Below, in pieces: positions 1,051 to 59,867 of a DNA stretch of 64,000 bases. Location: the NCBI GenBank assembly GCA_963706445.1, contig OY970160.1, forward strand, positions 928,001-992,000, written 5' to 3'. The position numbers and the translations under genes are program-made. Every line of letters starts with the position of its first letter. Position 1 is the stretch's first letter. The DNA comes from an uncultured Nitrososphaerales archaeon (GTDB lineage: Archaea > Thermoproteota > Nitrososphaeria > Nitrososphaerales > Gagatemarchaeaceae). The notes beneath the pieces are model-generated. The model was not told the DNA's origin. It searched no databases and saw only the letters and a program-made list of their open reading frames with translations.

Positions 1051-1875
1051 CTAGGCCTCCGTCCAGGTAACATCACCGCCGCTGAGCTTGACCCTGCCAG
1101 CCGGCATGTGGCCCGAGAAGATCAGGGCCGACTCCATCGAAGCACGTTCAAGGAACTCCTTCCGTACCCTCAACAGTTGCGGCGCGTCGGTCCAAACAGC
1201 GGCCATCTCTGGTCTTACGACTTCCTCCCTCATGTGAAACAGGTCTCCGACGATGTACCCCCTGTCGTCCTTGGGGCCGATGGAGACGATCTGATGCCCG
1301 GGACTCTCACCGGGGGCAGGCTCCACGACGACGTCCCTCGCGACATCGACTCTGCCATCCACAAGTTCCATCAGACCTGCCTTGTAAACGAGACCGAGTG
1401 TCTCCGCGAAGTCTTTGTCCCCTTTCGCCCTCGCCTCCGCGATGTCAGCCATTTCCCAATCCTTTGCTGGGATTAGGTGTCTAGCGTTCGGGAAGGTGGG
1501 GACCATTTTGCCTCCGTCGGAAAGGGTCACCCCGATGAAGTGGTCGTAGTGGAGGTGGGTCACCACCACATGCGTCACCTCTTCGCGCTTGATCCCAGCC
1601 TCCGCCAGCTGTGTGGGCAGGGGCACCGGATTCGGCATGGCACCCTTCTCTTCCCCGGAGGAGGCTGTCAGCCTCGCATGGTCCCCGGGGTCTACTAGGA
1701 TCTTTGCCTTCCCCGAAGTCACGAAGAACGAATTGCTTGCGTAATAGACTGGCGCCGCAAGCGCGTCCTGCTTGAAATAGTCAGAGGTCTTGTCTCCGAA
1801 GATCTCAATCAGCTTGATGGGGAAGTCCCCGTTGTTGAAGACTGAGACTTCGGCGCTTCCGAACCTGAGGGTCAG
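1051..1875 (-). CDS. MBL-fold metallo-hydrolase
   Basis: THLHYDH and GESPGH motifs. Frame stays open upstream of the track's GTG (1722) to a CTG at 1875 directly after the endA stop, giving the N-terminus LTLRFGSAEVSVFNNG. Confidence 0.85.
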   Translation of the reverse strand: MTLRFGSAEVSVFNNGDFPIKLIEIFGDKTSDYFKQDALAAPVYYASNSFFVTSGKAKILVDPGDHARLTASSGEEKGAMPNPVPLPTQLAEAGIKREEVTHVVVTHLHYDHFIGVTLSDGGKMVPTFPNARHLIPAKDWEMADIAEARAKGDKDFAETLGLVYKAGLMELVDGRVDVARDVVVEPAPGESPGHQIVSIGPKDDRGYIVGDLFHMREEVVRPEMAAVWTDAPQLLRVRKEFLERASMESALIFSGHMPAGRVKLSGGDVTWTEA

Positions 1876-2433
1876 CTAGGCCCGCCACCAGTCGTACCTG
1901 AGGAAGTCTATGGACCTGTTCTCTTTGTCTGATATCGCAATAATGAACTGCTTCCTCACGGTGGTGGCCAGGCGCCCCGACCTTACCATTGAAGTGGCGG
2001 TCATCTTGGACTCCGGGGAGACCACCTGGACGATGTAGGGGGCGTGGTCGATCCCCGGCCCATGCTCGTATACCGCGAAGTCCGAGCCGAACTTTATCCC
2101 AGGCGTGACCACAAAGCCGTCCTCCCTGAGCTTCCTATAGACGAGGAACTTCTCCTCGAAGTCGTTGTAGGAAGACTTGCATATCTCGTGTAACTGCTTC
2201 AGGGAAAGTTCCCTGCCATCCTGGTCCTCAACGTCCACCACCTTCTTGGTGACCAGGTAGTACCCCTCCATCAGGTCAAGGATCAGGGGGGCGTCGAACT
2301 CGAAATCTCTCGGCTTCGGGATGCCGAGGGGCTTGCCGTAGTACCCCTCCTTGAAAAGCCGCCGGGAGGCTTCCTTGTCCCAGACAACTATTCGGTTCTC
2401 GAAGAGCTTTCCCTTGGCCTTGTGCTTCGGCAT
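1876..2433 (-). CDS. endA: tRNA-intron endonuclease, catalytic subunit
   Basis: PGIKFGSDFAVY..GPGIDHAPY..RLATTVRK with the Tyr/His/Lys triad. Confidence 0.93.
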   Translation of the reverse strand: MPKHKAKGKLFENRIVVWDKEASRRLFKEGYYGKPLGIPKPRDFEFDAPLILDLMEGYYLVTKKVVDVEDQDGRELSLKQLHEICKSSYNDFEEKFLVYRKLREDGFVVTPGIKFGSDFAVYEHGPGIDHAPYIVQVVSPESKMTATSMVRSGRLATTVRKQFIIAISDKENRSIDFLRYDWWRA

Positions 2434-2435
2434 GA

Positions 2436-3107
2436 CTACATGCCCAGGGCGAGGATGGTACCTGCATCGGACGCGTCGAGCATCGCATCTGCGCAGTCTT
2501 CGATGGACTCGACTACTTCCTTAACGGTGATGAGCTCCTTCACGTTGGTCGCCGTCTTCATCACCATGGCCACGGCCTCGCGATAATTATTGTCAATGGA
2601 ACTTTCGATACGCTGAACCTGGGCCGCCATCTGGATCGACTGGTCGGGGTTGATGGAAAGGGCGCGGATGCTTTCGTTCAGCTTCGAGATCCCGTCAATG
2701 AGCAGACCCAGTAGCGATGTGATGGCGTCCTTGTACTTCCTATTCCTGACTGAAGACTTTGTCAGCTGAGACATCTTGAAGGCGACCCCGTTGATGTGCC
2801 CGAAGATGTCCTCGACGGCGAACGCCGCCCTTAGAAGGTCTTCCCTGTTGACCAGTAGCGTCCCGACCTGACCTAATTCGCGTATGAGCGCGGTCCTTAG
2901 GGTCATGACGTCCTCCTCGGCACGCTTGACCCTCTCGAGGGCAGCCCCCACCTCGTTCTTATCTCCCTTGTTGAGCCCATTGAACTCGTCGAGCAGGACC
3001 CTCGTAGCATCTAGGACCCTCCGCATTTCGTCCTGGAGGACTACAATCGTACGCCTTCTTGCCTGCGTTTCCCCTTCTTGTCCCGACACTCTGAGCGCTC
3101 GCTCCAA
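2436..3107 (-). CDS. DUF47 / PhoU-like helical protein
   Basis: All-helical; NREDLLR and ESIEDCAD patterns. Confidence 0.75.
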   Translation of the reverse strand: MERALRVSGQEGETQARRRTIVVLQDEMRRVLDATRVLLDEFNGLNKGDKNEVGAALERVKRAEEDVMTLRTALIRELGQVGTLLVNREDLLRAAFAVEDIFGHINGVAFKMSQLTKSSVRNRKYKDAITSLLGLLIDGISKLNESIRALSINPDQSIQMAAQVQRIESSIDNNYREAVAMVMKTATNVKELITVKEVVESIEDCADAMLDASDAGTILALGM

Positions 3108-3189
3108 CCCATGAAATGGATTGGATTTAAAACAGTGGGACTAATCGGCGAAGTTCATGGAAGAAGTGGGGGCTTTCGACCCCGTTCTT

Positions 3190-4095
3190 CTATTTCTTCT
3201 CGCTTTCCTTGGCGTAGTCTCTCAGTGGGGCGAGGAGGTTGGTGAACTCCATCGGGAAGATGTACTTCGTCGATGGGGAAGCGCCCAGCGCCTTCAGGGT
3301 GTCCAGATACTGGAGCGTCATGGTCTTGGAGTCGATCCCCTTGGCCGCGGAGAATATCTGGTTGAGCGCGCCCGCATATCCTTCAGCCCTGAGCACCGCT
3401 GCCTGCTTGTCTCCTTCGGCTCTCAGGATGTTGGACTTCTTCTCTCCTTCAGCCACGAGAATCGAGGCCTCTCTCTTGCCGTCCGCCTCGGTGACCGTCG
3501 CCCTTCTGGTCCTCTCCGCCGACATCTGGCGGACCATCGCCTCCTGAACGTCCTGAGGCGGCCTGATCTCCCTGATCTCGACGTTCGTCACCTTGATGCC
3601 CCACCGCTCCGTAACTTCGTCGAGCTTCGTCCTGAGCACCTGGTTGATCTGTTCCCTCTTCGCGAGAAGTTCGTCGAGGGGGATGTCACCCACGACTGCC
3701 CTGAGGGTCGTTGTGGCGATTCCTATGGACGCACCCTCGAAGTTCTGTACCTGGACGATGCTCTGCGTCGCTTCGGTCACCTTGTAATAGATCAAGAAGT
3801 CGATGTCGGTCGGAGCGTTGTCCTTTGTGATGCAGGTCTGGTGAGGGACCTCAAGGTACCGCTCTCTGAGGTCGACCTTGTTGATACGGTTGACGAGGGG
3901 TATGATGAATACGACGCCTGGACCGGCGGCTCCCTTCAGGCGTCCGAGTCTGAATACCACGAGCCTTTCGTATTCCCTGATTATCTTGATCGTCGCCGCG
4001 ATGAAGCCGATGACGATGATCGCCACAATCCCGTATATGGCATAGCTGATTAGATCTGCCGTGGTTTGGAGGGCGATCGGACCTAGGAGGCTCAT
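3190..4095 (-). CDS. SPFH/stomatin (band 7) membrane protein
   Basis: N-terminal TM, EYERLVVFRLG, ITKDN, WGIKV; paired with NfeD. Confidence 0.93.
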   Translation of the reverse strand: MSLLGPIALQTTADLISYAIYGIVAIIVIGFIAATIKIIREYERLVVFRLGRLKGAAGPGVVFIIPLVNRINKVDLRERYLEVPHQTCITKDNAPTDIDFLIYYKVTEATQSIVQVQNFEGASIGIATTTLRAVVGDIPLDELLAKREQINQVLRTKLDEVTERWGIKVTNVEIREIRPPQDVQEAMVRQMSAERTRRATVTEADGKREASILVAEGEKKSNILRAEGDKQAAVLRAEGYAGALNQIFSAAKGIDSKTMTLQYLDTLKALGASPSTKYIFPMEFTNLLAPLRDYAKESEKK

Positions 4096-5438
4096 TTCTC
4101 TAGCTTCTCTACCGCGAGTGTCTGCCCGTGTACTTCTTTAACTATTACCGGGTCCCCGCGCTGAAGATTTTGGGAAGAAGTCACGGTCCATTCCTCCGAG
4201 GATATCATGGCTACGCCTTTGCCCCCTGGGGTAAGGTCGGATTCCATGCGGCCTTCTCGGCCGATTAGCACCGCAGGGTCGTTGACCTTCGGTATCTTCT
4301 TCAGGGCCTCGCGGATGGACCTGAGGTACACGCTGCCTATGATAATGGTGGCGCCTAGCGCGACGAGGAGGGCGTAGGTGATGTCGGGGATGCCCGAGAA
4401 GCTCGCGGGCTGCTGCGGGATGGGGTTGGTCGGGGAGGGAGCAGATGAGGTGGCTGGCGGGAACTGGAAGATTAGCAGGAACCCCACCACAAAGATGACC
4501 ACGCCGACTGTGGCGCTTATGCCGTGGGCTGTTTTCACCTCCAGGAAGATGAAAGCGACTCCTATGATCATGAGTATCACCGCGAGAGGAGAAGCGCCGA
4601 AGGCCCCGAGGCCGAAGAGAGCCGCCGCGATTACGGCCACCCCTACCACCGACAGGATGATTGTGGGGTGGAATATGTCAGCAAAGACGAAGAAAATCCC
4701 CAAAAGGAACAGGAGGCTGGAGACGTTGGGGTTGCTCAGGATCGAGATAAGTGAAGACCCAATGCCCGGGGCGTTGATCGGAGTGTTCGCCGGGACCCCC
4801 AGATAGATCAACGCGCCCTGAACGGATGACGAATTGATGATTCCGTTGATGACGTGATACTTCAACGCAACGTCAGAAGTATAGGATACTCCGCCGGTCA
4901 CCATGAGTCCGGTGGCAGTGAAGTTCCTACCGTTCGACTGGGTCAAGGACATCATGTACTGCGAGAAGGCGTTGATGTCCTTCGTCATCGTGGAATTCTC
5001 CTCTCCGGTGGGGATGCCTGACACTATGGGGGTGGCGGACCCTATGGTCGTGCCGGGCTCCATGTAGATCTGGTTGGACGACTCGGCGATGTATGACCCT
5101 GCGGAGAATGCGTAGGACCCCGTCGGCGCCACGACCGTCGAGAAGTTCCCTCCCCACTGCTGGTAGCTCGTGATGGAGGAGATCATCGACTCCATGCTCG
5201 CGCCATCTCCGCCGTTTGTTACGAGGATGAATACGATGTTGGTGGCACAGACTGACTCTGCGTTGCTGACTGTGGTAGCCATGAAGTCGGCGGTGCCCGG
5301 GTCGATGTCGGCGTTCAGCGAAGCCACATAGAAGCCCCCTTTCGTCGCACAGCTTGTAGACTGGGCATGGGCGGGGGCGAGCTGGGCAGCGAAGACGAGC
5401 AGCAGGGCAACTGCGAGGACCAGCCTGAGACTCTTCAA
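4092..5438 (-). CDS. nfeD: NfeD-family membrane-bound ClpP-class serine protease
   Basis: Signal peptide, AFSAGSYI/TIGSATP, TM bundle, C-terminal OB-like domain; upstream of stomatin. Confidence 0.88.
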   Translation of the reverse strand: MKSLRLVLAVALLLVFAAQLAPAHAQSTSCATKGGFYVASLNADIDPGTADFMATTVSNAESVCATNIVFILVTNGGDGASMESMISSITSYQQWGGNFSTVVAPTGSYAFSAGSYIAESSNQIYMEPGTTIGSATPIVSGIPTGEENSTMTKDINAFSQYMMSLTQSNGRNFTATGLMVTGGVSYTSDVALKYHVINGIINSSSVQGALIYLGVPANTPINAPGIGSSLISILSNPNVSSLLFLLGIFFVFADIFHPTIILSVVGVAVIAAALFGLGAFGASPLAVILMIIGVAFIFLEVKTAHGISATVGVVIFVVGFLLIFQFPPATSSAPSPTNPIPQQPASFSGIPDITYALLVALGATIIIGSVYLRSIREALKKIPKVNDPAVLIGREGRMESDLTPGGKGVAMISSEEWTVTSSQNLQRGDPVIVKEVHGQTLAVEKLEK

Positions 5439-5584
5439 GAGGTTGCTGAGAACCTACCACCGTATCATAAATACTATCTCCCTGACCAATGGAACCGTAA
5501 TCTCAAACCGTCGCCAGTTCGTTTTTCATGACTGCCTAATACCCTTACATACTTACCGAGAGCGCCCCAATCCAAGCAGGCAAG

Positions 5585-6229
5585 ATGAAGCCCAAGGTCC
5601 TTGTGATGAACCATCCGATGGTGATGGAACAGCTCGCTCTGGTCAGAGACAAGCGCACCAACCAGGTGGCTTTCAGGAAGGCGATCTACAGGCTCGGGAG
5701 GTTCATGGCATACGAATTCCTTAGGACCATGGACACCCAGATGTTCGAGGTTGAGACCCCGCTAGGCCCCTCCAAGGGGTGGCGCATAAAGGGGAACGAC
5801 AAGATAGTGATAATCCTCGTCCTAAGGGCTGCGATACCATTTGTCGAGGGGATGTACAAGAACTTCCCCATGGCCAGGACAGGGGTCATCAGCGCCTGGC
5901 GGGGGAAGGCGCCAGACTTCCCAATAGAGGTAAACTACACGAAGATACCCAAGATTGGCAGCGACGACGTGGTCGTAATAGCTGATCCCATGCTTGCGAC
6001 GGGTCACACGCTCCGCGAGGTCGCCAAGAAGGTGGTCAAGGAAGGCAGGCCCAAACGCCTAGCCTTTTTCTCGGTCATCTCGACGAAGCAGGGGATTGAG
6101 TACGTGGCTAAGAGCTTCCCCCGTGCCGAATTCTATACCTGCGCCATAGACCCGATTCTCAATGACCATGGGTACATCGTGCCTGGGCTCGGAGACGCGG
6201 GAGACAGGTCTTTCGGCGCCCCTAACTGA
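5585..6229 (+). CDS. upp: Uracil phosphoribosyltransferase
   Basis: VLRAA, DPMLATG, YIVPGLGDAGDR. Confidence 0.96.
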   Translation: MKPKVLVMNHPMVMEQLALVRDKRTNQVAFRKAIYRLGRFMAYEFLRTMDTQMFEVETPLGPSKGWRIKGNDKIVIILVLRAAIPFVEGMYKNFPMARTGVISAWRGKAPDFPIEVNYTKIPKIGSDDVVVIADPMLATGHTLREVAKKVVKEGRPKRLAFFSVISTKQGIEYVAKSFPRAEFYTCAIDPILNDHGYIVPGLGDAGDRSFGAPN

Positions 6230-37242: not shown

Positions 37243-37865
37243 TTCAGCACCCTTCTTGCAAAAGCGGCCGATTGCCTCCCGAAGCGGGTCCTCGCCAGTT
37301 TCTTGAAGTCCTCGGGCGAATCGACGTCGAACATGATACCCAACTCTGAGGCCACACCGACAGAAAGACCTTTTCTGCCGCAGGACTCGATGTGGTTCCA
37401 AAAGCTGTCGTCGTCGTAGCTGAGGTCGGGGCTACGCTTGGTGGAGAAGGCGAGGGCGTTTGTGCCGTCGAAACCCATGGAGGGTGCGATGGAGACATCG
37501 AGTCCCGATTTCAATCGCAGCATCCGTCTGACCTCCGCTCCTTGGAGCAAAGGAAGGTCTGAGGGGAGGACGAGGACAGTGCCGGGGTTGAGCTTCCGGA
37601 TTCCCAGCAGGACGGCGGCATTGACCCCCTTGTCTGCGTCTTCTTTGATTGCCCCGACTCCCTCCTCGGCCGCCAGTTCCAGGGCTCTGACATCCGATGA
37701 CACGATGTATGTCCGTCTCAACAGCCCGGCTGATCGGAGTGCCCCCAGCACTTCTGCGATCAGTATTTCGGAGAACTCTCTACGTTCCCGCTTTGTCAGG
37801 ACCCCCGCCAACCTAGATTTCGTCCCAAGAGATTTGACAGGAATAAGCACTGCAAGCGGGATCAA
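37239..37865 (-). CDS. cofC: 2-phospho-L-lactate/PEP guanylyltransferase
   Basis: IPVK....KSRL, PSDLP, GTNAL, FDVDSPED; in cof operon. Confidence 0.92.
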   Translation of the reverse strand: MIPLAVLIPVKSLGTKSRLAGVLTKRERREFSEILIAEVLGALRSAGLLRRTYIVSSDVRALELAAEEGVGAIKEDADKGVNAAVLLGIRKLNPGTVLVLPSDLPLLQGAEVRRMLRLKSGLDVSIAPSMGFDGTNALAFSTKRSPDLSYDDDSFWNHIESCGRKGLSVGVASELGIMFDVDSPEDFKKLARTRFGRQSAAFARRVLK

Positions 37866-38776
37866 ACCTTGAGCAGCTCCTTGGCAAGCCGGAGCTGTGC
37901 TTTTGGACCGTCGAGCTGGATGTCAGTTGCCGTGAAATCGACTCCGAGCGACCTGATGTCTGGCCCCAATTCTCTGTCCTCTTCGGAAATAAAGATGCAA
38001 TCGAGGAACTTCGAGTAGAGCTCAGCGACCCCGAACGAATCGACCCTCGACCCCCGGGCTCGCAGGAACTCGCCCGCTGGGCCGCTGAAGGGGGCCTTCC
38101 CAACAATAGGCGACACGGCCACGACCTTCGCATAGGAGTCCGCAAGGAGCTTGGTGAATCCCGGGATCGCGAGAATGGGTCCGATGCTGGTGATCGGGTT
38201 CGCCGGGCAGACGACTATCCTGTCGGCTCTGGAAACTGCGTCCGAAACTTCTTTGGTCACCCTTGCCTTCCTCCCGCCCTTGTAGCGGATTCCCGTGACT
38301 TTGGGGAGACCGCGCTCCCTGACCCAGAACTCCTGGAGGTGGAGGTCACCCTCCTGTGTGAGGATTCTTGTTTCGACGGGGTCGTCGGTCGCAGGGAGTA
38401 TCCTGCACCTGATTCCAAGCTTTTTGCGGACCCGTTCTGTCGCCTCGGTCAGGCTTGCCCCATGCTGCAGCATCGAAGTCCGGACCAGGCAGTGTGCCAG
38501 GTCCCTGTCCCCGAGCCTGAACCAGGTCTCTTCCCCCAAAGCTGAGAGTTGGGAGAGAACAGAATAGGTGTCCCCGGAGATTCCCCAACCATGCGACTCG
38601 TCTGCGATCCCTGCCAGAGTGTAGGTGGCGACGTCCACGTCGGGGCAGACGTAGACACCGTAGGCCCAGAAGTTGTCACCGACATTTGTAACGACGGTGA
38701 GGTCCACGGGGAGTCTGTACAGGCCCCGGAGCAGCTTCGCTGACCCCGTCCCCCCGGCGAGAGCGACGACCCGCGT
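37862..38776 (-). CDS. cofD: 2-phospho-L-lactate transferase
   Basis: RVVALAGGTG, NVGD, CPDVD, LGDRD, ANP..SI.PIL, SGPA; apparent ACG start after GGTGA. Confidence 0.92.
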   Translation of the reverse strand, partial: TRVVALAGGTGSAKLLRGLYRLPVDLTVVTNVGDNFWAYGVYVCPDVDVATYTLAGIADESHGWGISGDTYSVLSQLSALGEETWFRLGDRDLAHCLVRTSMLQHGASLTEATERVRKKLGIRCRILPATDDPVETRILTQEGDLHLQEFWVRERGLPKVTGIRYKGGRKARVTKEVSDAVSRADRIVVCPANPITSIGPILAIPGFTKLLADSYAKVVAVSPIVGKAPFSGPAGEFLRARGSRVDSFGVAELYSKFLDCIFISEEDRELGPDIRSLGVDFTATDIQLDGPKAQLRLAKELLKV

Positions 38777-38780
38777 ACTC

Positions 38781-39530
38781 TCACCTGAATAGGTCCCGCT
38801 CGGGGGGCATGATCATCGACCCCACCCCCTCCTCTCCCCGGACGTATTCTGCACCCCGCACTACGGCCGCCGGAATCCCCTTCAGTTTCCCGATGGCGAG
38901 CTCCGCCGCTCCAGCGATCTCGTCGACCACCGAAGGCTCCGTCACCCTAAGCTCGTAACCGAACCTGTCCATCTTGCCCGCGTACTTGACTAATGGTACG
39001 ACCCCCGAGCACCCTATCGCCACGTCTGTCTGGCCCATCCTCCATGGCCTTCCGAAGGTGTCCGTCACGACCACGGCGACATTCCTGCGGGTCGCTTCCT
39101 CAAGCTTCTTCCTGATCTTCCGTGCGCTCCCGTCTGGGTCTATGGGGAGCAGGGCCACGTTCCCTCCGCCCACGTTTGACTGGTCGATGCCGGCATTCGC
39201 GCAGACGAAGCCGTGCCTGGTCTGGGTGATGATCACCCCGTTCCGTGCACGCACTACCCTCACAGACTCCTTCAGCATCAGTTCGACGAGCCTTGGGTCC
39301 TTGCCCTCCTTCTTGCCGAGGCTCTTTGCCCTACGCCCGGGGACGACTTCCTCGAGCCTGACTATACGCCCCTCCGCCTTCGACACGACCTTCTGCTTGA
39401 CCACCACGACGTCCCCTTCCTGCAGCCGGAGTCCCCCGCGAACCAGTGATGCCAGGATCAAGCCTGCGAGGTCGTCCCCTCCTCTTACCTCTGGAATCCC
39501 CCTGAGCGGGATGACCTCGATTCGACCCAC
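38781..39530 (-). CDS. cofE: Coenzyme F420-0:L-glutamate ligase
   Basis: KVVSKAEG, ANAGIDQSN, TDTFGRPWR.G, DLFR. Confidence 0.95.
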   Translation of the reverse strand: MGRIEVIPLRGIPEVRGGDDLAGLILASLVRGGLRLQEGDVVVVKQKVVSKAEGRIVRLEEVVPGRRAKSLGKKEGKDPRLVELMLKESVRVVRARNGVIITQTRHGFVCANAGIDQSNVGGGNVALLPIDPDGSARKIRKKLEEATRRNVAVVVTDTFGRPWRMGQTDVAIGCSGVVPLVKYAGKMDRFGYELRVTEPSVVDEIAGAAELAIGKLKGIPAAVVRGAEYVRGEEGVGSMIMPPERDLFR

Positions 39531-42624: not shown

Positions 42625-44091
42625 CTAGCCTCGGATTCTTGGCTCTAGGGTTTCTTCGAAGAACCTTCGCGTCATCCCGCTAGCAGGCGAGTCAAACGGA
42701 TCAATGCTCACCACGACGGGGAGGTTCCTAACCGCGTACCCGAGCAGGAGGCACATTCGGGGAGGAAGGGTCCTCACGATGGCCTTGACGGTGTCCGTGT
42801 CCGCCATCGAGGCCTGCGACACCAGCCCGAGGTCCGAGTCGCTGCTGAAGTTGTAGAGGAATATGTTGTCCACCTGGCGGTAGATCTTCTGGTCGATGGC
42901 GTCGGGCTGGTTTGTGACGAACACGGTGAAGACCCCGAAGTGCCTCATCCTCGTGATAAGGTCCTCCCAGTAGGTGTCGCGCAGGTACAGGTGGGCCTCC
43001 TCGGCGAAGAGGAAGACAGGCGGAATCTTGCGCCGCTCGAGGAGCTCCACCAGCTTGGAAAGCATGAGCTCGACGACCATCTTCCTGTTGAGGGGGGAGA
43101 CCCCGCTCAGGGACACCACCAGGGCCCCCCCGTCCCGGTTCATAGAGAAGAAGTCCTGCAGGTCGAACTGCTGTCGGGGGGAGTCGGTGAAGAGGCCGCA
43201 TGACGCCAAGGTGTGGTACCTGGCGAAGAGAGCGTCCCTCACGAACTCGTTGCACCTCCACTGCTGGATGCCAGATTCGAGGGTGGCCAGGGTCAGCTCG
43301 TCCCTGTTGTCGAGCTGCTCCCAAATCTTGACGAACTCCCTGAGCGACGTCCCGGGCATGTCGAGGGAGTGCGAAAGGAGGTTGGTGATCGCCCTGAGCC
43401 CCACCGACGCAAGTGAAAACTTCAGGTCCCGCCCTGGGCGGAGCACCTGCACCTTCCGGCTTTCAGAGGTCTCTGTGCCGTCCTTGCGCTGGCCCACGGA
43501 GCCGTATTCGTCGTTGAGGTCGAATACCACGGCGTAGGCGCCATTCTCGAGGAGGCCCCTGAGCAGGATTTTCGCTAGGTGAGACTTCCCCGACTCCTTC
43601 CTCCCAGTAATGACCGTGATCCTGCCGTCAAGGGTCTCCGCCGGGATGCTGAACGCCGACTCGGAGTCGACGGTCCCGAGTCGGATGTCCCTGACCCCCA
43701 ACGGCTCGACCGCCCCTGCCAGCTCTTCAACCATCAGACGGGTCACCGCGGAACTCGTCCTCGAGGGCATCCAGTTCGCGCGAGGGGTGAGCCGCCCGTC
43801 CGAAATCGTCCCCCGGGCCTTGCATAACAGTATCCGCATGTCCCTAATGAGGGTGGAGATAGTAGAAAGCCCCGTGGGGTCCGATGTCGTCCCCGGGGCG
43901 GATGCAGAGAGTATCTCCTCCCTGGCTATCTCTTCTTCTATCCCTTCGACGTCCAGGTACCTTTCGTCGTAGACCTGCATTACCAGGCTCCTCTGGGGCT
44001 CAGAAGCGACCAGGTAGTCCCCGACGCGGACCCGCTCCCTGGGGGAGGCGATGACGAGTATGTCGTCCGACTCTTTCTTGAGTATCTTCAG
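42625..44091 (-). CDS. HerA/FtsK-superfamily ATPase (DUF87)
   Basis: Walker A GRKESGKS, Walker B FAEEAH, RMRHFG, TNQP; N-terminal barrel-like segment starts at CTG 44091. Confidence 0.87.
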   Translation of the reverse strand: MKILKKESDDILVIASPRERVRVGDYLVASEPQRSLVMQVYDERYLDVEGIEEEIAREEILSASAPGTTSDPTGLSTISTLIRDMRILLCKARGTISDGRLTPRANWMPSRTSSAVTRLMVEELAGAVEPLGVRDIRLGTVDSESAFSIPAETLDGRITVITGRKESGKSHLAKILLRGLLENGAYAVVFDLNDEYGSVGQRKDGTETSESRKVQVLRPGRDLKFSLASVGLRAITNLLSHSLDMPGTSLREFVKIWEQLDNRDELTLATLESGIQQWRCNEFVRDALFARYHTLASCGLFTDSPRQQFDLQDFFSMNRDGGALVVSLSGVSPLNRKMVVELMLSKLVELLERRKIPPVFLFAEEAHLYLRDTYWEDLITRMRHFGVFTVFVTNQPDAIDQKIYRQVDNIFLYNFSSDSDLGLVSQASMADTDTVKAIVRTLPPRMCLLLGYAVRNLPVVVSIDPFDSPASGMTRRFFEETLEPRIRG

Positions 44092-44094: not shown

Positions 44095-45087
44095 CTAGGC
44101 ACTCCCTTTGAATCCGCCCAGGGCGATCTTCCTCAGAGGGAACGTGTGTAGCTGGCGGACGCGAAACTTCTTTGTGACGAAGGCCTTCAGCGCCTGGTCA
44201 TCCGCCTTTGAAAAGATCGAGAGATGGTGTGCGACCTTCAGTGAATCGGGGTAGCCTGACGCGAAGGCGTCGTTCCAGAGCACCCTGCCCAAGGTGGTTT
44301 CCATCGGTTCGGGACCCGAAAGGTCAAGCCTGAACACCAGCCCGTCGTGGGTGAACTTCGCGAGGACCGTGCCGACGGCCCCCCGATCGATGACATAGTA
44401 GGAGGGCCCGGGGGTCCGCGACAAAGCACCGGCCATCTGTTCACTAAGTATCAGATTGCTCGACTTTGAGAACCCGACGAAGCACCTGCCGGCCCCAGGT
44501 CTGAGAAGGAAGCTGTTGGCAAGCTGGCCCATGGGGTGCTTGAGGGAACCGTCTGCCATGATTATGGTGTCGCCGTCTGAACCCGAGAGCGCCTCGATCA
44601 CCCGCCTCTCCACATTGTTTCTGATGTATCTCTCAGCAACCGCGTGGTCAGATAGAAGCAGGTCCATCTCCGAGGAGGGGAGGCGTGGAGTCAGCCCCGA
44701 CAGCCCGGACGAATTAGCAAAGACAAGTATCGGCCCGAGCCTGAAGAACCTGCGCAGGGAGCCTTCGAAGGAGATGCCTACGGCGGTCCGGGCAGCGTAT
44801 AGCGCGCCCTCCGCAGTCTCCCCCACGAGGACGCACGTCGAATCGACGGACGCGACCGGCCGCCCTTCTTTGATAGGAATTATGCACCCAGGGGCCAGTT
44901 GCGCGTCTGTCGACTCGAAGTACGGATAGAGCTCCTTCCCGTAGCTGCTGAAGACGAACGTCCTCCCAGCGAGCTGTCTCTCGGCGCTCTCCGAGAGCTC
45001 AACGAATGCCTCTTCGAACTCCCTGGCGAGAGAGTCCAAGACGGAGAGGCGCTCGTCTTCGGTATCTTGGAAGGTCTCGATGGCCAT
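44095..45087 (-). CDS. NurA-like nuclease
   Basis: SVDST, ADGSL, GFSKSS, FRLD, GYPDSL..AH. Confidence 0.8.
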   Translation of the reverse strand: MAIETFQDTEDERLSVLDSLAREFEEAFVELSESAERQLAGRTFVFSSYGKELYPYFESTDAQLAPGCIIPIKEGRPVASVDSTCVLVGETAEGALYAARTAVGISFEGSLRRFFRLGPILVFANSSGLSGLTPRLPSSEMDLLLSDHAVAERYIRNNVERRVIEALSGSDGDTIIMADGSLKHPMGQLANSFLLRPGAGRCFVGFSKSSNLILSEQMAGALSRTPGPSYYVIDRGAVGTVLAKFTHDGLVFRLDLSGPEPMETTLGRVLWNDAFASGYPDSLKVAHHLSIFSKADDQALKAFVTKKFRVRQLHTFPLRKIALGGFKGSA

Positions 45088-45272: not shown

Positions 45273-45692
45273 TTGTCGGAAAACGAGAAACCTCCGAGCG
45301 TCACGGTCAGGCTTAAGCGGGGAGCATGGGAGATCGAGATAACCTCGCAGGAGGACCGGGTGCAGCAGGCGGTAGAGAGCGTTCTGGCAGGGATGGCGTC
45401 GAAGGAGCCGATGCTAGTGGAATCTCAAGAGGCTCTTCCTGGTGACAGGAAGGGCGAGACCTCCAGAGGGGTCATCACGACGATGTGGAAGGAGGGTTGG
45501 TTTGTTACACCCAAGGCATTGTCCGAAGTCCACGAGGAGATGAGTAGGCGGGGGTATCATTATGACAGGACAGCTGTGTCCCACACCCTTGTAGACCTCG
45601 TCAGGGAGGGGTCCTTGTTCAGAGACGGGAGCATGAGGAACTATCGGTACGTCCAGAAGTACCCCTTCAAGAGCCAGAACGGAGCTTCTTAG
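45273..45692 (+). CDS. Winged-helix protein with N-terminal beta-beta-alpha domain (paralogue 1)
   Basis: VTVRLKRGAWEIEI; EGWF.TPK.LSEV..EM.RRGY....VS..L..LV. Confidence 0.75.
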   Translation: MSENEKPPSVTVRLKRGAWEIEITSQEDRVQQAVESVLAGMASKEPMLVESQEALPGDRKGETSRGVITTMWKEGWFVTPKALSEVHEEMSRRGYHYDRTAVSHTLVDLVREGSLFRDGSMRNYRYVQKYPFKSQNGAS

Positions 45693-46179
45693 AGAGCTGC
45701 TCGCCGAGCCTGTTCGTCCCTACCGTTGTTATCCTGTACTTGCCCCCTTGGTCAGACTCGACCCTCTCGACATTGGCAGCCTTTGTCAACTCGCTGAGCC
45801 TCGAGCTTATCGTCTTCGGGTAGAGCCCCGTGGCCGACTCAATTTCGGCCACCCCCATGGCATCCATCGTCGTCTTCCCGCTCAGGCTTGCAATCCTGGC
45901 GGCGACCAGCTGGAGCATGATAACGTCCCTGTCACTTAGCTTCTTGTCCTGGGTCCAGACCCTTGGCCCTTCGGGGGTGACACGGACGTATTCCTTGAAC
46001 ATCTGGACGAGGTCGTTCAAGGAGTAGTTGACGCTGATCACCCTCGCTAGATCCATGTTGGGTATCATCTTCGAAACGAATTCGTGCAACGAGCGCATGA
46101 CTACTTCTGGTGAGCCCGAGAATTCGACCTTAGAGTCGCCGTAGCTTACCGATATTGAAAGGTCTCTTTCGCTTGACAG
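45667..46179 (-). CDS. Winged-helix protein with N-terminal beta-beta-alpha domain (paralogue 2)
   Basis: CTG start gives SISVSYGDSKVEFSGSPE; EIESATGLYPKTISSRLSEL..YRIT. Confidence 0.75.
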   Translation of the reverse strand: MSSERDLSISVSYGDSKVEFSGSPEVVMRSLHEFVSKMIPNMDLARVISVNYSLNDLVQMFKEYVRVTPEGPRVWTQDKKLSDRDVIMLQLVAARIASLSGKTTMDAMGVAEIESATGLYPKTISSRLSELTKAANVERVESDQGGKYRITTVGTNRLGEQLSKKLRSGS

Positions 46180-53510: not shown

Positions 53511-54823
53511 TTCTTCTCTGGAAACGTCCTGGTCGTCGTCTCCCCGGTTATGTCGCTAATGATGAGCTCCTTCGCCTTGTCGATGCTCGTGCTGTTGCCG
53601 AGGGCCCACATCGCCTTCACCAACGCCGTTTCGCTAAGCATGTCCTCGAGTGGGATCACTCCCGCTTCCAAGAGGTCTCTCCCCGTCGCGTACACGTTGA
53701 GGTCCACCCTCCCCTCGATGCATTGGGAGGTCATGAAGACAAGCCGCCCTCCCTTGACGAACGCCCTGAGTTCCTGCATCACTTCCTTGTCCACATGGCC
53801 AAGGCCGGTGCCCTCTACTATGAGCGCTTTGGCACCCCCCTTTTTGGCCGCCGCCACCAGAGAACCCGCCATCGATGGATAGAACTTGAGCAGCGCGACC
53901 CCTTCGTCGAACCTGACACGGGGCTTGAAAGGTCCTCCCCTCTTCGGGAGGCCTTCCCCGACGAACTCCAAACCTGACCTTCCCCATACGGCGGCGAAGG
54001 GGACTCCGACGGAGACGAAGGCATCCCGCCTGCTTGTGTGGTTCTTCCTGACCCTATTTCCCCGGTGGAATACCACCTTGTCGTCGTCCTCCCCCAGGTG
54101 CATCGCCACGTAGACCCCGGAAAACTCAGCCCGTCCGGCGACATAGGTCGAAGCCAGCAGGTTCAGGGGGGCGTCTGAGGACGGCCGGTCGGACGACCTC
54201 TGGGCCCCGACAAGGATCACGGGGATCGGAACACCGGCGAGGGCGAAGCTGAGGGCGGCCGCTGTATATCCGAGGGTGTCGGTGCCGTGGGTTATGACCA
54301 CCCCATCGACTCCGTCGTCGACCGCCTTCTTGACCCGCTGGGCGAGCTTAGTCCAGTGCTTCGGGGTGATGTTCTCGCTCAATATGTCGAACATTATCTC
54401 CGGCTCGACCCTTGCGATTTCGGACAGCTCCGGCACGAGAGAGTGGAGCTCTGCCGAGGACACCGCAGGGTGGACCGCCCCAGTCTTGTAGTCGATCCTG
54501 CTCGCGATGGTCCCACCTGTGCCAAGTATGAGGACTCGGGGGAGTCCCTTGGCGGGCTTTGGAGGCAGTGGGGCGGTGAAGGAAGGCTTCTCCCCTTTCT
54601 CCTTCACCTTCGCGCTTTTCAGTCCGGAGAGGCTGAGTCCGACGTTGTATCCCGACTTTAATTTCAGTACGATGTAGTCCCCGACACCATACGCGTAGCG
54701 TGGCACAAGGGTCCCCGTGACCGTACCCCAGTCAGTTTGGACCTCAAGGACGTCCCCGATGGACGCCCCTGCCTGATTGAGGAAACGCACGGCGTCCTCC
54801 CTGTAACCCGAGAGGTCCCCCAT
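53507..54823 (-). CDS. gatD: Glu-tRNA(Gln) amidotransferase subunit D
   Basis: KLKSGYNVG, TGGTIAS, HGTDT, QRSSDRPSSD. Confidence 0.97.
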   Translation of the reverse strand: MGDLSGYREDAVRFLNQAGASIGDVLEVQTDWGTVTGTLVPRYAYGVGDYIVLKLKSGYNVGLSLSGLKSAKVKEKGEKPSFTAPLPPKPAKGLPRVLILGTGGTIASRIDYKTGAVHPAVSSAELHSLVPELSEIARVEPEIMFDILSENITPKHWTKLAQRVKKAVDDGVDGVVITHGTDTLGYTAAALSFALAGVPIPVILVGAQRSSDRPSSDAPLNLLASTYVAGRAEFSGVYVAMHLGEDDDKVVFHRGNRVRKNHTSRRDAFVSVGVPFAAVWGRSGLEFVGEGLPKRGGPFKPRVRFDEGVALLKFYPSMAGSLVAAAKKGGAKALIVEGTGLGHVDKEVMQELRAFVKGGRLVFMTSQCIEGRVDLNVYATGRDLLEAGVIPLEDMLSETALVKAMWALGNSTSIDKAKELIISDITGETTTRTFPEKK

Positions 54824-54875
54824 GCGAAGGGAGCCGACCCGGTTCTGTCTTAAAGTATTGTTGGGGAATGCGGCT

Positions 54876-56471
54876 CTAGTCCAGTGGTCTGGCCATGTAC
54901 GGTCCTTCCCGTTCGTACCCCCGCCTTCGGTAGTAGTTCCGGGTCCCGACAGCGCTGGTGACGAGGAGCTTCTTCGCGCCGAATGTTTCCCTGGCCTGTT
55001 TCTCCATTTTTTCCATAAGAGATGTCCCGAGCCCTCTGTGCTGCCACGCGGCCTCCTCCCTTTCCCCGAGCTTGACGACTTGGCCGTAGACCCTCAGCTC
55101 TCTTATGATTGCCGCGTTGTCCACCTCACGCCTGTGGGCCGATGGGGAGGGGACCCGCATCCGCACGAAGGCGGAGATTACCCCCGAGTCCCTGAACTCG
55201 AAAGACCCAAAAACTTCCTCTCCCTCCGACGCCCTGTACCTCGTTTCCTTGTACTGCAGGGTGTCTTCCCCGGCGAACGAATCTGGAGCTCTGAGGGCGA
55301 CTTCCCGGCATCTGATGCATCTGCAGTCAATCCCTTTCTGCCTGGCCCTTTCTAGGACGAGCTGCCGCAGGTTGCCGCAGGGGACTCCTCCCTGTATCTC
55401 GCTGGCAGGGATCTCCCTCTGGATCCTCATTATCCTGTGCCAGGGCGGGACGAACCTCTTCATCTCGCTCAACAGCTCCACCACGGTCTCCACGGGGTAT
55501 GGCTCGAAGAGCCCCACTTCGAACTGGCGAGCCAGGGAGGTTCCAGGGATTACCAGGGTGGGATAGAGCTTCGACATGTCGGGCCTGAAGGCTACGTCTT
55601 CGAATAGCCGCTTGAGGTCCTCGAGGTCTTCCTGCGGAGTGGCGCTAGGGAGCCCGGGCATCATGTGGGCCGTGACCTTCAGGCCGGCGTCTCTGGCGAC
55701 CTTGAAGGCCTGCGCGGTGTCGTCCACGCTGTGCCCTCGGTTGCTCCTCGTGAGCACGTTGTCACGGAGGCTTTGGACACCTATCTCCAAACGAGTTATC
55801 CCGTAGGCGAGCATCAGATCGATATCCTGGGGCCGGCACCAGTCGGGCTTCGACTCGAGGGTGAGCCCCACGCAGCGGCTGGCGGCTGACTCGTTGAACA
55901 CCTGTGCCTCCTCGAGCGAAGATGACTTCACGCCGTTGAGGCCTTCGTAGACTCCCTTGACGAAGTCAGTCTGGTAGTCCTTGGGGACGGCGATGAACGT
56001 CCCGCCCTCTATTATCGTCTCCACTTTGGAGATTTCGTGGCCGTTAGCGGTGTATTTGGCGAGAGATCGCTTGACCTGGAGGCAGGGGTCGAACTTGGCG
56101 TCGAGGGCGGTTTTCATTCCGGGGCTCTGCGGGAGGTACGACTGCGGCGTTCCCACTGAGGGCCCGCCGGGACAGAAGACGCAGGTACCGTGGGGGCAGA
56201 GGAAAGGGGCGGAGAAGGCTGTCACGACCACGATTCCGGAGGCGCTCCGCCGGGGGTGAACCCTGAGGATTTCGACAAACTCTGGCTTGGCTCCAGGTCC
56301 AAGGTGGACGAGGATTTCGGAATTGGAGGGATACCGGTCCAGCGAATAATCCGAAGCGGCCTTCTTCTTCAGCTTCTCGAGCTGAAGGCGGGAGCCTATC
56401 TTGCCCTGGGAGACCTGTTCGGCGATGTAAGCGGCGGCTGCTTTCAGTTCTTCAGAGGCCTGTTCGGTCAC
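54876..56471 (-). CDS. elp3: Elp3 tRNA uridine(34) acetyltransferase (radical SAM + GNAT)
   Basis: [32 protein letters not shown]. Confidence 0.95.
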
Positions 56472-56635
56472 CGGCGCATCCAGTTCTGACCTGGCTTGCG
56501 CTTCAGAGTAAAGCGTTTCTCGTAGGTCCGCTTGTTCCGGACCTTGGGGATTTTACTCGCCTTGGGCTTTCCTTCTAGCTTGGGAGTCTGACTCCGAACT
56601 TTTCCAGCCTTTGTAAGGGATCCGTGAGTTGGAAC
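56468..56635 (-). CDS. rps30e: 30S ribosomal protein S30e (55 aa, not in ORF track)
   Basis: Manual translation (M)[18 protein letters not shown]...; first codon GTT with in-frame TAG three codons upstream; stop overlaps the elp3 GTG. Confidence 0.93.
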
Positions 56636-56713
56636 GGCTTTCTACCTCTTTTATCTCCAACCGCCGAAGTTGGTATTTATCTGTAGCCCTCGCATTGTTG
56701 GGTCATCTCGGCG

Positions 56714-57057
56714 TTGATACGCATCGAAAAGTCCGTTTACTCTCCTATCAATCCTTCCGACGGCAGACGAGTCCTCGTCATGACCCTCTGGCCAAGAGGG
56801 GTATCGAAGGCCAAGGTCGACGCCTGGATGAAGAGCTCGGGACCCCGAGGGATCTGATCAAGCGGTACAAGGCGGGGAAGGTAACGTGGAGGGAGTTTAC
56901 CGCCGAGTACAAGCGGTCACTGAAGGGAAAGGAGGAACTACTGAAGGGCATAGCCCGAGAGTCAAAGCGTGGGACGATAACGCTCCTGTGCGTCGAAAAA
57001 GACAGTGCCCGATGCCACAGGTCCATCCTCAAGGAACAAATCGAAAAGTACCTCTGA
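56714..57057 (+). pseudogene. DUF488/YeaO-family gene with a 1-nt frameshift
   Basis: MIRIEKSVYSPINPSDGRRVLVMTLWPRGVSKAKVDAWMK in one frame; ELGTPRDL...TLLCVE...CHR in the -1 frame; junction near 56833. Confidence 0.8.
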
Positions 57058-57098
57058 AACCCTTTAATGGTAAGTGGCGGGAGCGGAGCTGAACTCTG

Positions 57099-58010
57099 TT
57101 GGATGAAAGCACGCCCGGAAGCGCTGATTTTGAGGCCCTGAGGCAGAAGAGCATAGCAGCCGCCGAGGCGACAATTCGCGAGGCCTCGTCCAGGCCCGAC
57201 CTGCATCTCGTCCAGGCGATTCAGGCGCTGGATGACACAGACAAGTACCTGAACATCACCGCAACGAGGGCATCCGAGTGGTACGGGCTCCACTTCCCGG
57301 AGCTCACTCAGATGATTCAGGACAACAACGCACTTTGCAAGATCATTTCTGAAATCGGAGGCAGAGATGGGTTCTCCAAGGAGAAGCTGGCGGGGAGGGG
57401 TTTCACCGACAAGAAGATGGAGGCGATCATTGAAGCGAGGGACAGGTCGAAGGGCGGGACCATCTCCGATGGTGACCTGGGTAGGGTCAAGGCATTGGCA
57501 ACCCTGGCAATCCAGCTCGGGTCCATTAGGGACGGTCTGAACGGCTATATTGAGAATCAGATGAAGAAGGTCGCCCCCAACGTCTCCGAGGTGGCAGGCT
57601 CCACCATCGGGGCGAGGCTCATGGCGAAGGCGGGGGGCCTTGACAGGCTCGCGGTCCTCCCGGCCAGCACCATCCAGATACTGGGAGCTGAAAAGGCGCT
57701 CTTCCGCTCTCTGAGGACAGGGGCGAGGCCCCCGAAGCACGGCATCCTATTCCAGCACCAGGCGGTCCACATGGCCCCGAAGTGGCAGAGGGGGAAGATC
57801 GCGAGGACACTGGCCAACAAGATAGCAATAGCGGCCCGGGTCGACTATTATCGTGGGTCCGAAGAAGCTTCGATTAAGGTGGCCTTGGACAAGAGATTGG
57901 AGAGCATCAAGGAGAGGTACAAGGAGCCGCCTCAGCGCAAGCCCGATGGGAAAGGGGCGCCTCGCCGAGAACGGAGGCCCTTCAGGCGCGACAAGCCGCG
58001 CCGAAGATGA
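57099..58010 (+). CDS. nop5: C/D box sRNP protein Nop5 (Nop56/58), short N-terminus
   Basis: EWYGLHFPEL, PASTIQILGAEKALF, PPKHG, RGKIAR. Confidence 0.93.
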   Translation: MDESTPGSADFEALRQKSIAAAEATIREASSRPDLHLVQAIQALDDTDKYLNITATRASEWYGLHFPELTQMIQDNNALCKIISEIGGRDGFSKEKLAGRGFTDKKMEAIIEARDRSKGGTISDGDLGRVKALATLAIQLGSIRDGLNGYIENQMKKVAPNVSEVAGSTIGARLMAKAGGLDRLAVLPASTIQILGAEKALFRSLRTGARPPKHGILFQHQAVHMAPKWQRGKIARTLANKIAIAARVDYYRGSEEASIKVALDKRLESIKERYKEPPQRKPDGKGAPRRERRPFRRDKPRRR

Positions 58011-58660
58011 CATTCCTGCTGCGGGAAGAAAAAAGGGGGAGGACTGCCCTCCTGACGAAGAATCTCACTCCAGGTAAGAGAGTCTACAACGAGGACCTGG
58101 TGATCCGGGACGGCCAGGAGTTTAGGACCTGGGACCCCTTCAGGAGCAAGCTCGCGTCAGCGATCATCAAGGGACTCCCGGCCGATGTTGTCCGAGAGGG
58201 TGCAAATGTGCTCTATCTTGGGGCGTCGACGGGGACAACGGCTTCCCACGTCTCTGACCTCGTCGGGCCAACAGGTTTGGTGATAGGAGTGGAATTCGCC
58301 CCAAGGGTTGCGAGGGAGTTCGTGGAGCACGTGGCTAGAGAGAGGAAGAACGTCATCCCCTTCGTCTCCGACGCAAGGGACCCTTCCAAGTATGCCATAG
58401 CCAAGGTGGACGTGGTGTACTGCGATATCGCACAACCAGACCAGACTGAAATCGCCGTAGAGAACTGCACTAAGATGCTGAAGCCCGGCGGTGCCCTCCT
58501 CCTGGTGGTGAAGGCGAGAAGCATCGACGTCCTGAAAGACCCAGGGAGGGTCTATACGGAGGAGAAGGCCAAGCTCGAAGGCGCGGGGTTCAAAGTGCTG
58601 AAGGTCGTCGAGCTCAGCCCCTTCGAGAAAGACCACGCACTAATCCATGCTTCACGCTAG
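58007..58660 (+). CDS. flpA: Fibrillarin-like 2'-O-methyltransferase
   Basis: WDPFRSKL, LYLGASTGTT.SH, DIAQPDQ, KARSID. Confidence 0.95.
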   Translation: MTFLLREEKRGRTALLTKNLTPGKRVYNEDLVIRDGQEFRTWDPFRSKLASAIIKGLPADVVREGANVLYLGASTGTTASHVSDLVGPTGLVIGVEFAPRVAREFVEHVARERKNVIPFVSDARDPSKYAIAKVDVVYCDIAQPDQTEIAVENCTKMLKPGGALLLVVKARSIDVLKDPGRVYTEEKAKLEGAGFKVLKVVELSPFEKDHALIHASR

Positions 58661-59307
58661 AACGAATCGAGAAGGCTCTGTTCGAGGTTCAGCCAGGTCT
58701 TCCAGCTCTTCCTCACATAGCTCGGGAGCGTCTCACCGACCTTCATCCTGTTCACAAAGAAGGCCCTGGTCTGGGGGTCGGACGGGTACCCCGAGCCGAA
58801 GTCTCCGTGTTCGTCCCTGAGCATCTCCACGGCCCTGTCCCTCTGGACTTTGGCTACGATGGAGGCCGCAGATACCGCGGGGTAATCCCTGTCCGCTTTG
58901 TGATGGGCGGCGACCCTGCACCCCCTTCCTAGATTGGCCAGTATATCGTCCCGGAACCGCTTCGGCAGAATGTCAGAGGCGTCAACCGTCACCTTCTGGG
59001 CCCCCAGGTTGTCTATAACCCTGGCGAAATAGACCGCCTCGAGGTAGTTGAGCTTACGGAGCCTCCGCCCCTTGGTGACCACTTCGTCTATCTCCTGCGG
59101 TGGTATCCCCTCCCAGTGGACTTGTTTGGAGATTCGAAGAATCTCTGGGTGCATCGCCTCCCGCTGTGAGGGGGTGAGCTTCTTGGAGTCCCTTACTCCA
59201 ATTTCCTTCAGCTCCTTGAGCCCGGCTGAATCGACCGACACTCCTGCGACGACCAACGGCCCCAGGAGGCAACCCCTACCGGCTTCGTCGACCCCACCGA
59301 TAATCAG
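58657..59307 (-). CDS. rnhB: Ribonuclease HII
   Basis: (M)IIGGVDEAGRG..LGP, DSKKL, KAD, AASIVAK, GSGYPSD; CTG start at 59307 (alternative CTG at 59322). Confidence 0.95.
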   Translation of the reverse strand: MIIGGVDEAGRGCLLGPLVVAGVSVDSAGLKELKEIGVRDSKKLTPSQREAMHPEILRISKQVHWEGIPPQEIDEVVTKGRRLRKLNYLEAVYFARVIDNLGAQKVTVDASDILPKRFRDDILANLGRGCRVAAHHKADRDYPAVSAASIVAKVQRDRAVEMLRDEHGDFGSGYPSDPQTRAFFVNRMKVGETLPSYVRKSWKTWLNLEQSLLDSF

Positions 59308-59318
59308 GCCGCCGCGGT

Positions 59319-59867
59319 TCAGACCTTGGGCCCCCCGACTGCCTTGAGGAGCAGCTCACCGACCTGTTCGGCGACCTCTTCCCTCGTCTCTACGGTCAGA
59401 GGGAAGGTAGTGTCAGCTTTGGCCCAGAGCTCGTTCAGAAGGTCGTCGTCCAGGCGCTCGTGGACCACGGCGAGGAGCGGCTTTCCCGAGTCGATGCATT
59501 TCCTGATCCCCCTCCTGAACTCTGGGCTGATGAGCTCCATGGGCCCGACCTCGTCGATGACGATGAGCTCCGATGAATTGGCAGCCGCTTCAAGGCCCGC
59601 CGCCCCTATGCCTGCGAGGTCGGTGAGGTTGACCCTGTACCTCCCCACCCTCGGTCCGACCCTGTTCGCGGCTGACGCGAGCTCTCCGGTCCTCCCAGAC
59701 GTGAGGTCGCGTATCACGAACCCGACCCTGGCCCCGCCCTCCTTCTTTTCCGAAGTGGTGCACCCCCCTACTATTACCCCGGCGCTCTTCAGCTTCATCA
59801 CGACCCTCGAAACGGCAGTCGACTTCCCTACCCCCGGCGGGCCGGTGACGAGCCAGATTGCAGTCAA
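59319..59867 (-). CDS. Nucleoside-triphosphatase (THEP1 family)
   Basis: TGPPGVGKST, R.GF, VGRY.V, IDEVGPME; TTG at 59867. Confidence 0.92.
   Translation of the reverse strand: MTAIWLVTGPPGVGKSTAVSRVVMKLKSAGVIVGGCTTSEKKEGGARVGFVIRDLTSGRTGELASAANRVGPRVGRYRVNLTDLAGIGAAGLEAAANSSELIVIDEVGPMELISPEFRRGIRKCIDSGKPLLAVVHERLDDDLLNELWAKADTTFPLTVETREEVAEQVGELLLKAVGGPKV

Follow-up and report, generated by a model that had tools for sequence, protein, structure and literature searches.

Six genes with no canonical codon at their proposed start

The window described here is a stretch of 64,000 nucleotides (nt) (G000:928001-992000; contig OY970160.1) of a single-contig genome of 1.82 Mb and 58% GC from an uncultured Nitrososphaerales archaeon. 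Among its ~65 genes are six, all on the minus strand, in which no ATG, GTG or TTG precedes the conserved N-terminus: those for a metallo-beta-lactamase (MBL)-fold hydrolase, CofD, a HerA-like ATPase, a winged-helix (wHTH) paralogue, the ribosomal protein eS30 (rps30e) and RNase HII (rnhB). An in-frame stop lies 1-14 codons upstream of each proposed start, the next canonical codon is at least 22 codons downstream, deep in the conserved part of the protein (at +23 in cofD), and the Pfam matches of MBL, CofD, HerA, eS30 and RNase HII begin upstream of the first canonical codon. All six codons that a preliminary description of the window had listed are thus present, although its phrase "window-wide use" is too strong for six of ~65 genes and ~3-4% of genes genome-wide.

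The HerA-like protein is 83-90% identical to counterparts in metagenome-assembled genomes (REEA69, SubAcS15-57 and SPRUCE bins) and 65% identical to that of Ca. Gagatemarchaeum stordalenia bog_1369. Protein similarity places the genome in group I.1c Thaumarchaeota (GTDB f_UBA183, Gagatemarchaeaceae; PMC10640624), most likely on the Subgagatemarchaeum side of the family; the article on Gagatemarchaeaceae mentions neither start codons nor introns (PMC10640624).

Table 1. Features of the window and related loci (window positions unless prefixed G000; SD, Shine-Dalgarno; BHB, bulge-helix-bulge)
Feature	Position	Strand	Remarks
MBL-fold hydrolase	1051..1875	-	Proposed start CTG 1875-1873, directly after in-frame endA TAG; PF00753
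endA, tRNA splicing endonuclease EndA	1876..2433	-	PF01974, PF02778; stop adjoins MBL CTG
cofD	37862..38776	-	Proposed start ACG 38776-38774; PF01933 from residue 3
SD-like AGGTGA before cofD	38781..38786	-	Includes cofE stop; 4 nt upstream of ACG; duplex -8.4 kcal/mol
HerA-like ATPase	42625..44091	-	Proposed start CTG 44091-44089, 3 nt past nurA-like TAG; PF01935
SD-like GGGAG before HerA	44102..44106	-	Within nurA-like 3' end; duplex -7.2 kcal/mol
wHTH paralogue	45667..46179	-	Proposed start CTG 46179-46177; orthologue column and identical Logan contig
rps30e (eS30)	56468..56635	-	Proposed start GTT 56635-56633; PF04758; intron-less "type I" 5' cassette
SD-like AGAGGT before rps30e	56644..56649	-	8 nt upstream of GTT; duplex -7.9 kcal/mol
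TATA-like box of rps30e (type I promoter)	56674..56681	-	Sequence comparison with relatives
rnhB (RNase HII)	58657..59322	-	Proposed start CTG 59322-59320, CTGA overlap with NTPase stop; PF01351 from residue 10
G-rich SD-like site before rnhB CTG	59331..59336	-	Within NTPase 3' end; duplex -9.4 kcal/mol
aIF1, this genome	G000:1389237-1389533	-	Knuckle-less; other family loci L141-L170, L232-L241
rps30e introns in family relatives	L036-L060, L282-L321		BHB-type inserts

The CTG codons of rnhB, MBL, HerA and wHTH recur without a base change in independent assemblies of this species, which match the window at 100% identity (MBL in JGI 3300001356, the other three in a Logan contig of SRR6195974), which refutes assembly error at these four sites. 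The ACG of cofD and the GTT of rps30e are supported indirectly by the gene calls of other assemblies: three of them call CofD at 281 aa and leave an equal gap of 73 nt after cofE, and in JGI 3300032160 the 226-nt gap in which rps30e lies is identical but contains no called gene, as callers behave when no canonical start is present. The exact DNA pattern of this rps30e found no match among metagenome contigs.

The expectation that standard callers would truncate or miss such genes was borne out. Relative to the extended frames, the public calls are shortened for RNase HII (199 vs 221 aa, which drops the catalytic motif region), CofD (281 vs 304 aa), MBL (223 aa, from a GTG, vs 274 aa) and wHTH (143 vs 170 aa); HerA is begun at an internal ATG and rps30e is missed. 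NCBI translation table 11 permits CTG and ATH starts; to our knowledge, ACG and GTT are not among them.

Orthologous start columns

The first codon of HerA in 55 family genes is CTG (19), GTG (11), TTG (9), ATG (7), ACG (5), GCG (2) or ATA (2), and the conserved N-terminus follows in every one of them, whichever codon is used, while 22 outgroup genes have ATG (18), GTG (3) or TTG (1). Most CTG and ACG orthologues have a stop just upstream and their next canonical codon at least 10 codons inside. CTG accounts for 19 of 19 non-TTG leucine codons in the column and ACG for 5 of 5 threonine codons, compared with genome-wide shares of 36% among the five non-TTG leucine codons and 28% among the four threonine codons; the relatives are not independent and these counts carry no combined p-value. 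The wHTH column holds ATG 16, TTG 11, CTG 6, GTG 5 and ACG 1, and that of cofD, TTG 6, ATG 2 and ACG 1. In rnhB of relatives the start likewise overlaps the NTPase stop and is TTG or CTG, which sets the start at 59322; the alternative at 59307, also offered in the preliminary description, is not needed.

By alignment, five of the six window codons, the GTT of rps30e included (see below), were confirmed to occupy the column in which orthologues have ATG, GTG or TTG. The MBL gene is the exception. Its CTG, proposed at 1875, is present and identical in the independent assembly, and the assignment as start was reached by exclusion, because the endA stop directly upstream blocks the earlier start of its relatives. 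The N-terminal strand of the protein is conserved among these relatives. The endA and MBL genes are adjacent in many relatives.

Four blind predictions from coding potential outside the window (rtcB, wecB, asparaginase and scpA) all had CTG in the orthologous start column, as did IPK; the rtcB column holds CTG 3 and ACG 1, the rest being GTG, ATG and TTG. Several other candidates were discarded. A nurA-herA read-through fusion was rejected on the variable frame among relatives, a GCG start of nurA on an ATG at +3, and a CTG start of ELP3 on its overlap with rps30e and a GTG at +4. A normal ATG is present in the UPRT candidate at 5540, the ACG and AAG candidates of the spc operon (rpl6, rps8, rpl24 and rpl18) have a canonical codon 1-2 codons away, and a SucD-like ACG candidate, with one distant orthologue only, could not be validated.

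Frequency of non-canonical starts

For the whole genome, a self-trained gene model returned 1545 genes with good scores. Where the coding signal extends at least 15 codons ahead of the first canonical codon, 16 of 19 genes have a CTG or ACG within 5 codons of the coding boundary (chance 0.22, p=1e-8), an excess without parallel among decoy codon pairs. Dividing detections by the detection rate on masked canonical starts gives a genome-wide share of 3.1-3.9% of genes, roughly 50-60, with CTG or ACG starts. This masking test took the place of reference-free fits: a free expectation-maximization fit over all 61 codons collapsed onto codon periodicity, and a constrained one had a high decoy floor (see below). 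The window is a hotspot, with 4 of 24 detections vs a genome share of 3.5% (p=0.009).

Use is uneven between genes and between lineages. In an alignment-light test, no canonical start preceded the conserved block in 60 of 1502 gene instances of the family; roughly 50 of these, 26 of them HerA, remain once alignment artefacts are removed. Other Nitrososphaerales families gave 2 of 453, both artefacts. About half of the HerA orthologues are non-canonical. None of the 22 spc operon genes of this genome is, and across the family only ~4 of some 440 spc instances are. Genome-wide, canonical starts divide into ATG 49-50%, TTG 34-36% and GTG 14-17%. TTG begins 20 of the 57 genes modelled in the window and 153 of the 425 that are unambiguous genome-wide, in agreement with the third estimated at first; it is not the commonest start, so that this is not TTG dominance of the Aeropyrum type.

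Ribosome-binding sites, initiator tRNA and initiation factors

All six window sites pair with the anti-SD sequence at -6.6 to -9.4 kcal/mol and normal spacing. The G-rich motif upstream of the HerA start is retained in relatives, and relatives of rps30e carry the identical SD-like motif and spacing ahead of ACG or ATG. In the genome as a whole, the 24 best non-canonical starts have a median anti-SD pairing of -7.6 kcal/mol vs -4.8 kcal/mol for the 425 unambiguous canonical starts (p=0.0008), and strong pairing is found at 75% vs 40% of them. Three candidate CTG starts on the minus strand (G000:1268913, 1372327 and 1601743) have no SD and a TATA-like box ~25 nt upstream, possibly a sign of leaderless CTG initiation.

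The initiator tRNA (G000:130547-130676, minus strand; L474) has, after removal of three introns, a CAU anticodon, A1-U72 and three G-C pairs; ARAGORN and the Rfam tRNA model both missed this gene. The anti-SD and those decoding motifs of 16S rRNA that were inspected are normal, aIF1A and aIF2beta show no family-specific feature, and aIF2gamma has 19 family-specific substitutions; aIF2alpha was read in this genome only. aIF1 is present, with an intact basic loop 1: it turned up in 46 of the 55 genomes of the genus. In the family sample (30 genus loci, this genome and one genome of the Gagatemarchaeum clade), aIF1 has nevertheless lost its zinc knuckle, has Thr at a conserved Cys, an acidic N-terminus and an invariant GTG start. 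Both knuckle and Cys are kept in 9 of 9 other Nitrososphaerales families sampled. The preliminary description had suggested looking for substitutions in aIF1, aIF1A, aIF2 and the initiator tRNA; of these, aIF1 is visibly remodelled, and the initiator tRNA, aIF1A and aIF2beta look normal.

Two side observations concern these factors. An aIF1A gene from each of two other Nitrososphaerales families, f2 and f8 (L553 and L559), has ATA at the Met1 position. In several relatives (L243, L244, L250 and L253), aIF2gamma carries a ~640-aa intein-like insertion from the Cys directly after the P-loop Lys, and long open frames suggest a similar insertion in G142 and G159.

Two 5' cassettes of rps30e

The start of rps30e could be compared across 70 family genomes, in which it is ATG (34), ACG (27), TTG (7), GTT (1) or TCG (1). 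In 40 of the 70 the gene contains intron A, an insert of 31-46 nt after codon 6 with BHB ends and a central helix in which a compensatory change is seen; excising it by the BHB rule recovers the conserved frame in 40 of 40 alleles. All intron-A alleles start with ATG (33) or TTG (7). The 30 genes lacking intron A start with ACG (27), GTT (1, the window gene), TCG (1) or ATG (1), so that 29 of 30 are non-canonical. A second insert of BHB type, intron B, which is 19-20 nt long and lies after codon 11, is found alongside both forms. The window gene has neither intron, those of its relatives lie after codons 6 and 11, and no upstream intron supplying it with a canonical start was found: ACG and GTT alleles are preceded by no BHB and no matching upstream half-codon. 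An intron within the start codon was rejected on the same comparison.

The class of start changes 14 times on the protein tree of the neighbouring ELP3 (at least 11 changes being forced by strong branches), whereas a tree of the upstream 66 nt requires only 3 changes; rps30e exon trees were unreliable, intron B having been left in. We therefore read the two forms as two old, linked cassettes, from promoter to codon 6, that would have been shuffled among species rather than having arisen in many independent events, and reject the alternative that intron A and the start codon co-evolved independently. There is exactly one apparent brake per cassette, a non-canonical start or intron A, and the two are mutually exclusive, a pattern that may be under selection. 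The position of the TATA-like box of the window gene would imply a short leadered mRNA. A DUF488 gene (window 56698-57057, plus strand) is divergent from rps30e, with 62 nt between both starts.

Weak starts of rps30e extend beyond the family. Of 80 intron-less genes from metagenomes (L339-L418), 27 are non-canonical (ATA 13, ACG 11, CTG 2 and ATC 1), each behind an SD-like motif, and the gene therefore appears to attract weak starts across archaea. ACG also begins rps30e in family f19, whose aIF1 keeps the zinc knuckle. Non-canonical starts, which were at first taken as a trait of this lineage, are accordingly not unique to it.

Proposed mechanism and alternatives

We consider it probable that the six codons are true but weak translation starts, at which ordinary Met-tRNAi initiates on a near-cognate codon positioned by an SD, with reduced efficiency. 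In the proposed mechanism, an SD, often located in the 3' end of the preceding gene or where stop and start overlap, would hold the small subunit in place with a near-cognate codon (CUG or ACG; rarely GUU, GCG or UCG) in the P site. There it would be read by normal Met-tRNAi (anticodon CAU) and accepted by the initiation complex at reduced efficiency, and protein beginning with Met would be made at low output. Near-cognates would then be tolerated alleles that interchange with ATG, GTG and TTG at ~3-4% of genes, mostly ones needing modest output; in herA and rps30e, where the near-cognate is widely kept, it is probably a brake on expression. The N-termini downstream of the non-canonical codons remain conserved, and rps30e and rnhB, as single-copy genes, cannot lose theirs, which counts for true starts.

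Several results weigh on the other side. GTT differs from ATG at two positions and was seen once, and the other assemblies support it indirectly. MBL relatives start 2-8 codons further upstream and give the CTG no codon-level support. About a quarter of the candidate non-canonical starts have no SD, and nearness to an upstream stop is not enriched among the 24 starts relative to the 425 (42% vs 35%, p=0.5). The sequences of aIF1A, aIF2beta, aIF2gamma and the 16S motifs revealed no decisive substitution, and a constrained reference-free model could not separate near-cognates from decoys, the decoy floor being several percent.

A family-wide relaxation of fidelity, in which the remodelled aIF1 rejects mismatched P-site codons less and near-cognates drift in, as in yeast Sui-minus mutants, is possible but tentative; it and weak initiation by ordinary Met-tRNAi are not mutually exclusive. 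aIF1 discriminates against non-canonical starts in Sulfolobus (PMC6237735), and the invariant GTG start of the family aIF1 would close a feedback loop, as the AUU start does in bacterial infC. Loss of knuckle and Cys in this family, set against the nine that keep both, would fit, but ~36% of archaeal aIF1s are knuckle-less anyway (PMC6237735), basic loop 1 is intact, and the coincidence is a single lineage-level one rather than a test. The contrast of 60/1502 with 2/453 instances would fit as well, but the spc operon is almost entirely canonical, f19 has ACG rps30e despite its knuckle, and ATA, ACG and CTG begin rps30e in unrelated archaea. Since knuckle-less aIF1s are so frequent and knuckle-bearing f19 has ACG rps30e, we regard the remodelling of aIF1 as a correlate, and as a lead rather than a cause; a lowered proofreading threshold is speculative. 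What the preliminary description proposed is supported as regards the start positions and their use across the family; the case for a relaxed fidelity machinery falls short, in that all factors are present, only aIF1 of the fidelity machinery is visibly remodelled, and the starts are a minority, uneven between genes and served by strong SD sites.

It is doubtful, though worth stating, that start-codon quality forms a regulatory layer in which the remodelled, GTG-started aIF1 gates the ~50-60 CTG and ACG genes, and rps30e needs one of two interchangeable brakes whose cassettes are swapped by recombination. If so, the intron brake would make eS30 depend on the splicing endonuclease.

It is improbable that translation begins at downstream canonical codons, or that the genes are decaying, with the upstream codons as untranslated relics and MBL as a fusion made by read-through of the endA TAG. 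Many HerA orthologues do have a GTG 12-27 codons downstream, but this codon shifts or vanishes between species. The start of nurA has indeed moved, from a column that now reads GCG to an ATG three codons further on. Yet the segments that would be skipped here remain conserved: they hold the catalytic motif of RNase HII, the first motif of CofD and, for eS30, the entire protein, in whose frame of 55 codons no other start is plausible. The endA and MBL genes share a frame here and in several relatives, whereas the frame differs in others.

C-to-U editing of the mRNA, which would turn CUG, ACG, GCG and UCG into UUG, AUG, GUG and UUG and so present canonical starts to the ribosome, is still less probable. 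Nearly all recurrent variants (CTG, ACG, GCG and TCG) are one such change away from a canonical codon, but T-to-C transitions in a genome of 58% GC yield the same spectrum, and GTT, ATA and ATC cannot be repaired in this way. Among 7330 conserved columns, C>T would mend 73 deviations, no excess over the 70 that T>C would mend, and CAA, CAG and CGA occur in 0 of 630 codons of stop columns. General C-to-U editing is thus not supported; editing confined to start codons would be compatible with the DNA. Assembly or base-calling error, which the singleton GTT might suggest, has a negligible probability given the four sites identical in independent assemblies, the truncated or missing calls that back cofD and rps30e, and the dozens of other species with the same codons.

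Relation to known systems

Reviews list AUG, GUG and UUG as the only archaeal start codons (PMC7531240; PMC4705826), and we found no published report of archaeal CTG or ACG starts in a literature search that fell short of most subscription papers. Some of the closest parallels are bacterial: conserved non-canonical starts are known for infC (ATT/ATA), E. coli pcnB (ATT), repA (CTG), and Deinococcus-Thermus rpsL (CTG) and dnaA (ATC), proteomically proven in Deinococcus (PMC2830850). As in the infC/rpsL type, a near-cognate stands at the orthologous Met1, a ribosomal protein gene is included, the genes are mis-annotated in databases, and a limiting or regulatory effect on output has been proposed. 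The bacterial cases, however, concern few genes with a fixed codon and operate with IF3 and fMet, whereas here ~3-4% of genes are involved, related species differ in the codon, ACG is frequent and the factors are archaeal aIF1 and aIF2. Aeropyrum pernix (52% TTG, 28% ATG and 20% GTG; Yamazaki 2006, as cited in PMC5911459) is likewise an archaeon with heavy TTG use and SD-led genes; in the present genome ATG leads (~50/35/15) and codons beyond the accepted three are used. Eukaryotic CUG/ACG initiation and the yeast Sui-minus eIF1/eIF2 mutants (PMC4705826) share the preferred codons and homologous factors, but here there is no scanning: an SD or the end of the preceding gene positions the ribosome. 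The codon also serves its gene as the main start rather than giving a minor isoform, and no Sui-type lesion was identified in the initiation factors read. The rps30e inserts resemble the BHB pre-mRNA intron of crenarchaeal cbf5 (PMC2738675) in being short, in having BHB ends and, for intron A, in that excision restores the frame; they differ in that the host gene encodes a ribosomal protein and has two insertion sites, and in that intron A excludes a non-canonical start.

To these systems the present analysis adds a genome-wide rate with controls, a contrast between families, confirmation in independent assemblies, an aIF1 correlate and the either/or pattern of rps30e. If ~3-4% of genes, core genes included, have CTG or ACG as main start throughout a family, the three-codon rule of archaea is widened, and genes with five or more start codons across species offer natural alleles for testing the parts of aIF1/aIF2 and of the SD in start choice. 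Public protein sets of these abundant acid-soil archaea contain truncated RNase HII, CofD, HerA and MBL, and lack eS30 where it is near-cognate-started; analyses of markers, pathways and gene loss can be biased as a result. The alternative of weak start or intron in rps30e joins two oddities of archaeal expression in one easily assayed gene of 170 nt.

Other observations

The rpl19e gene (L171-L190) starts with TTG in 21 of 21 family genomes examined and is a second invariant weaker start besides that of aIF1. At the rtcB loci of G052, G060, G043, G021 and G003, the RtcB match begins at residue 70-98 in frames of ~1000 aa, which suggests that the RNA ligase of several relatives contains inteins.

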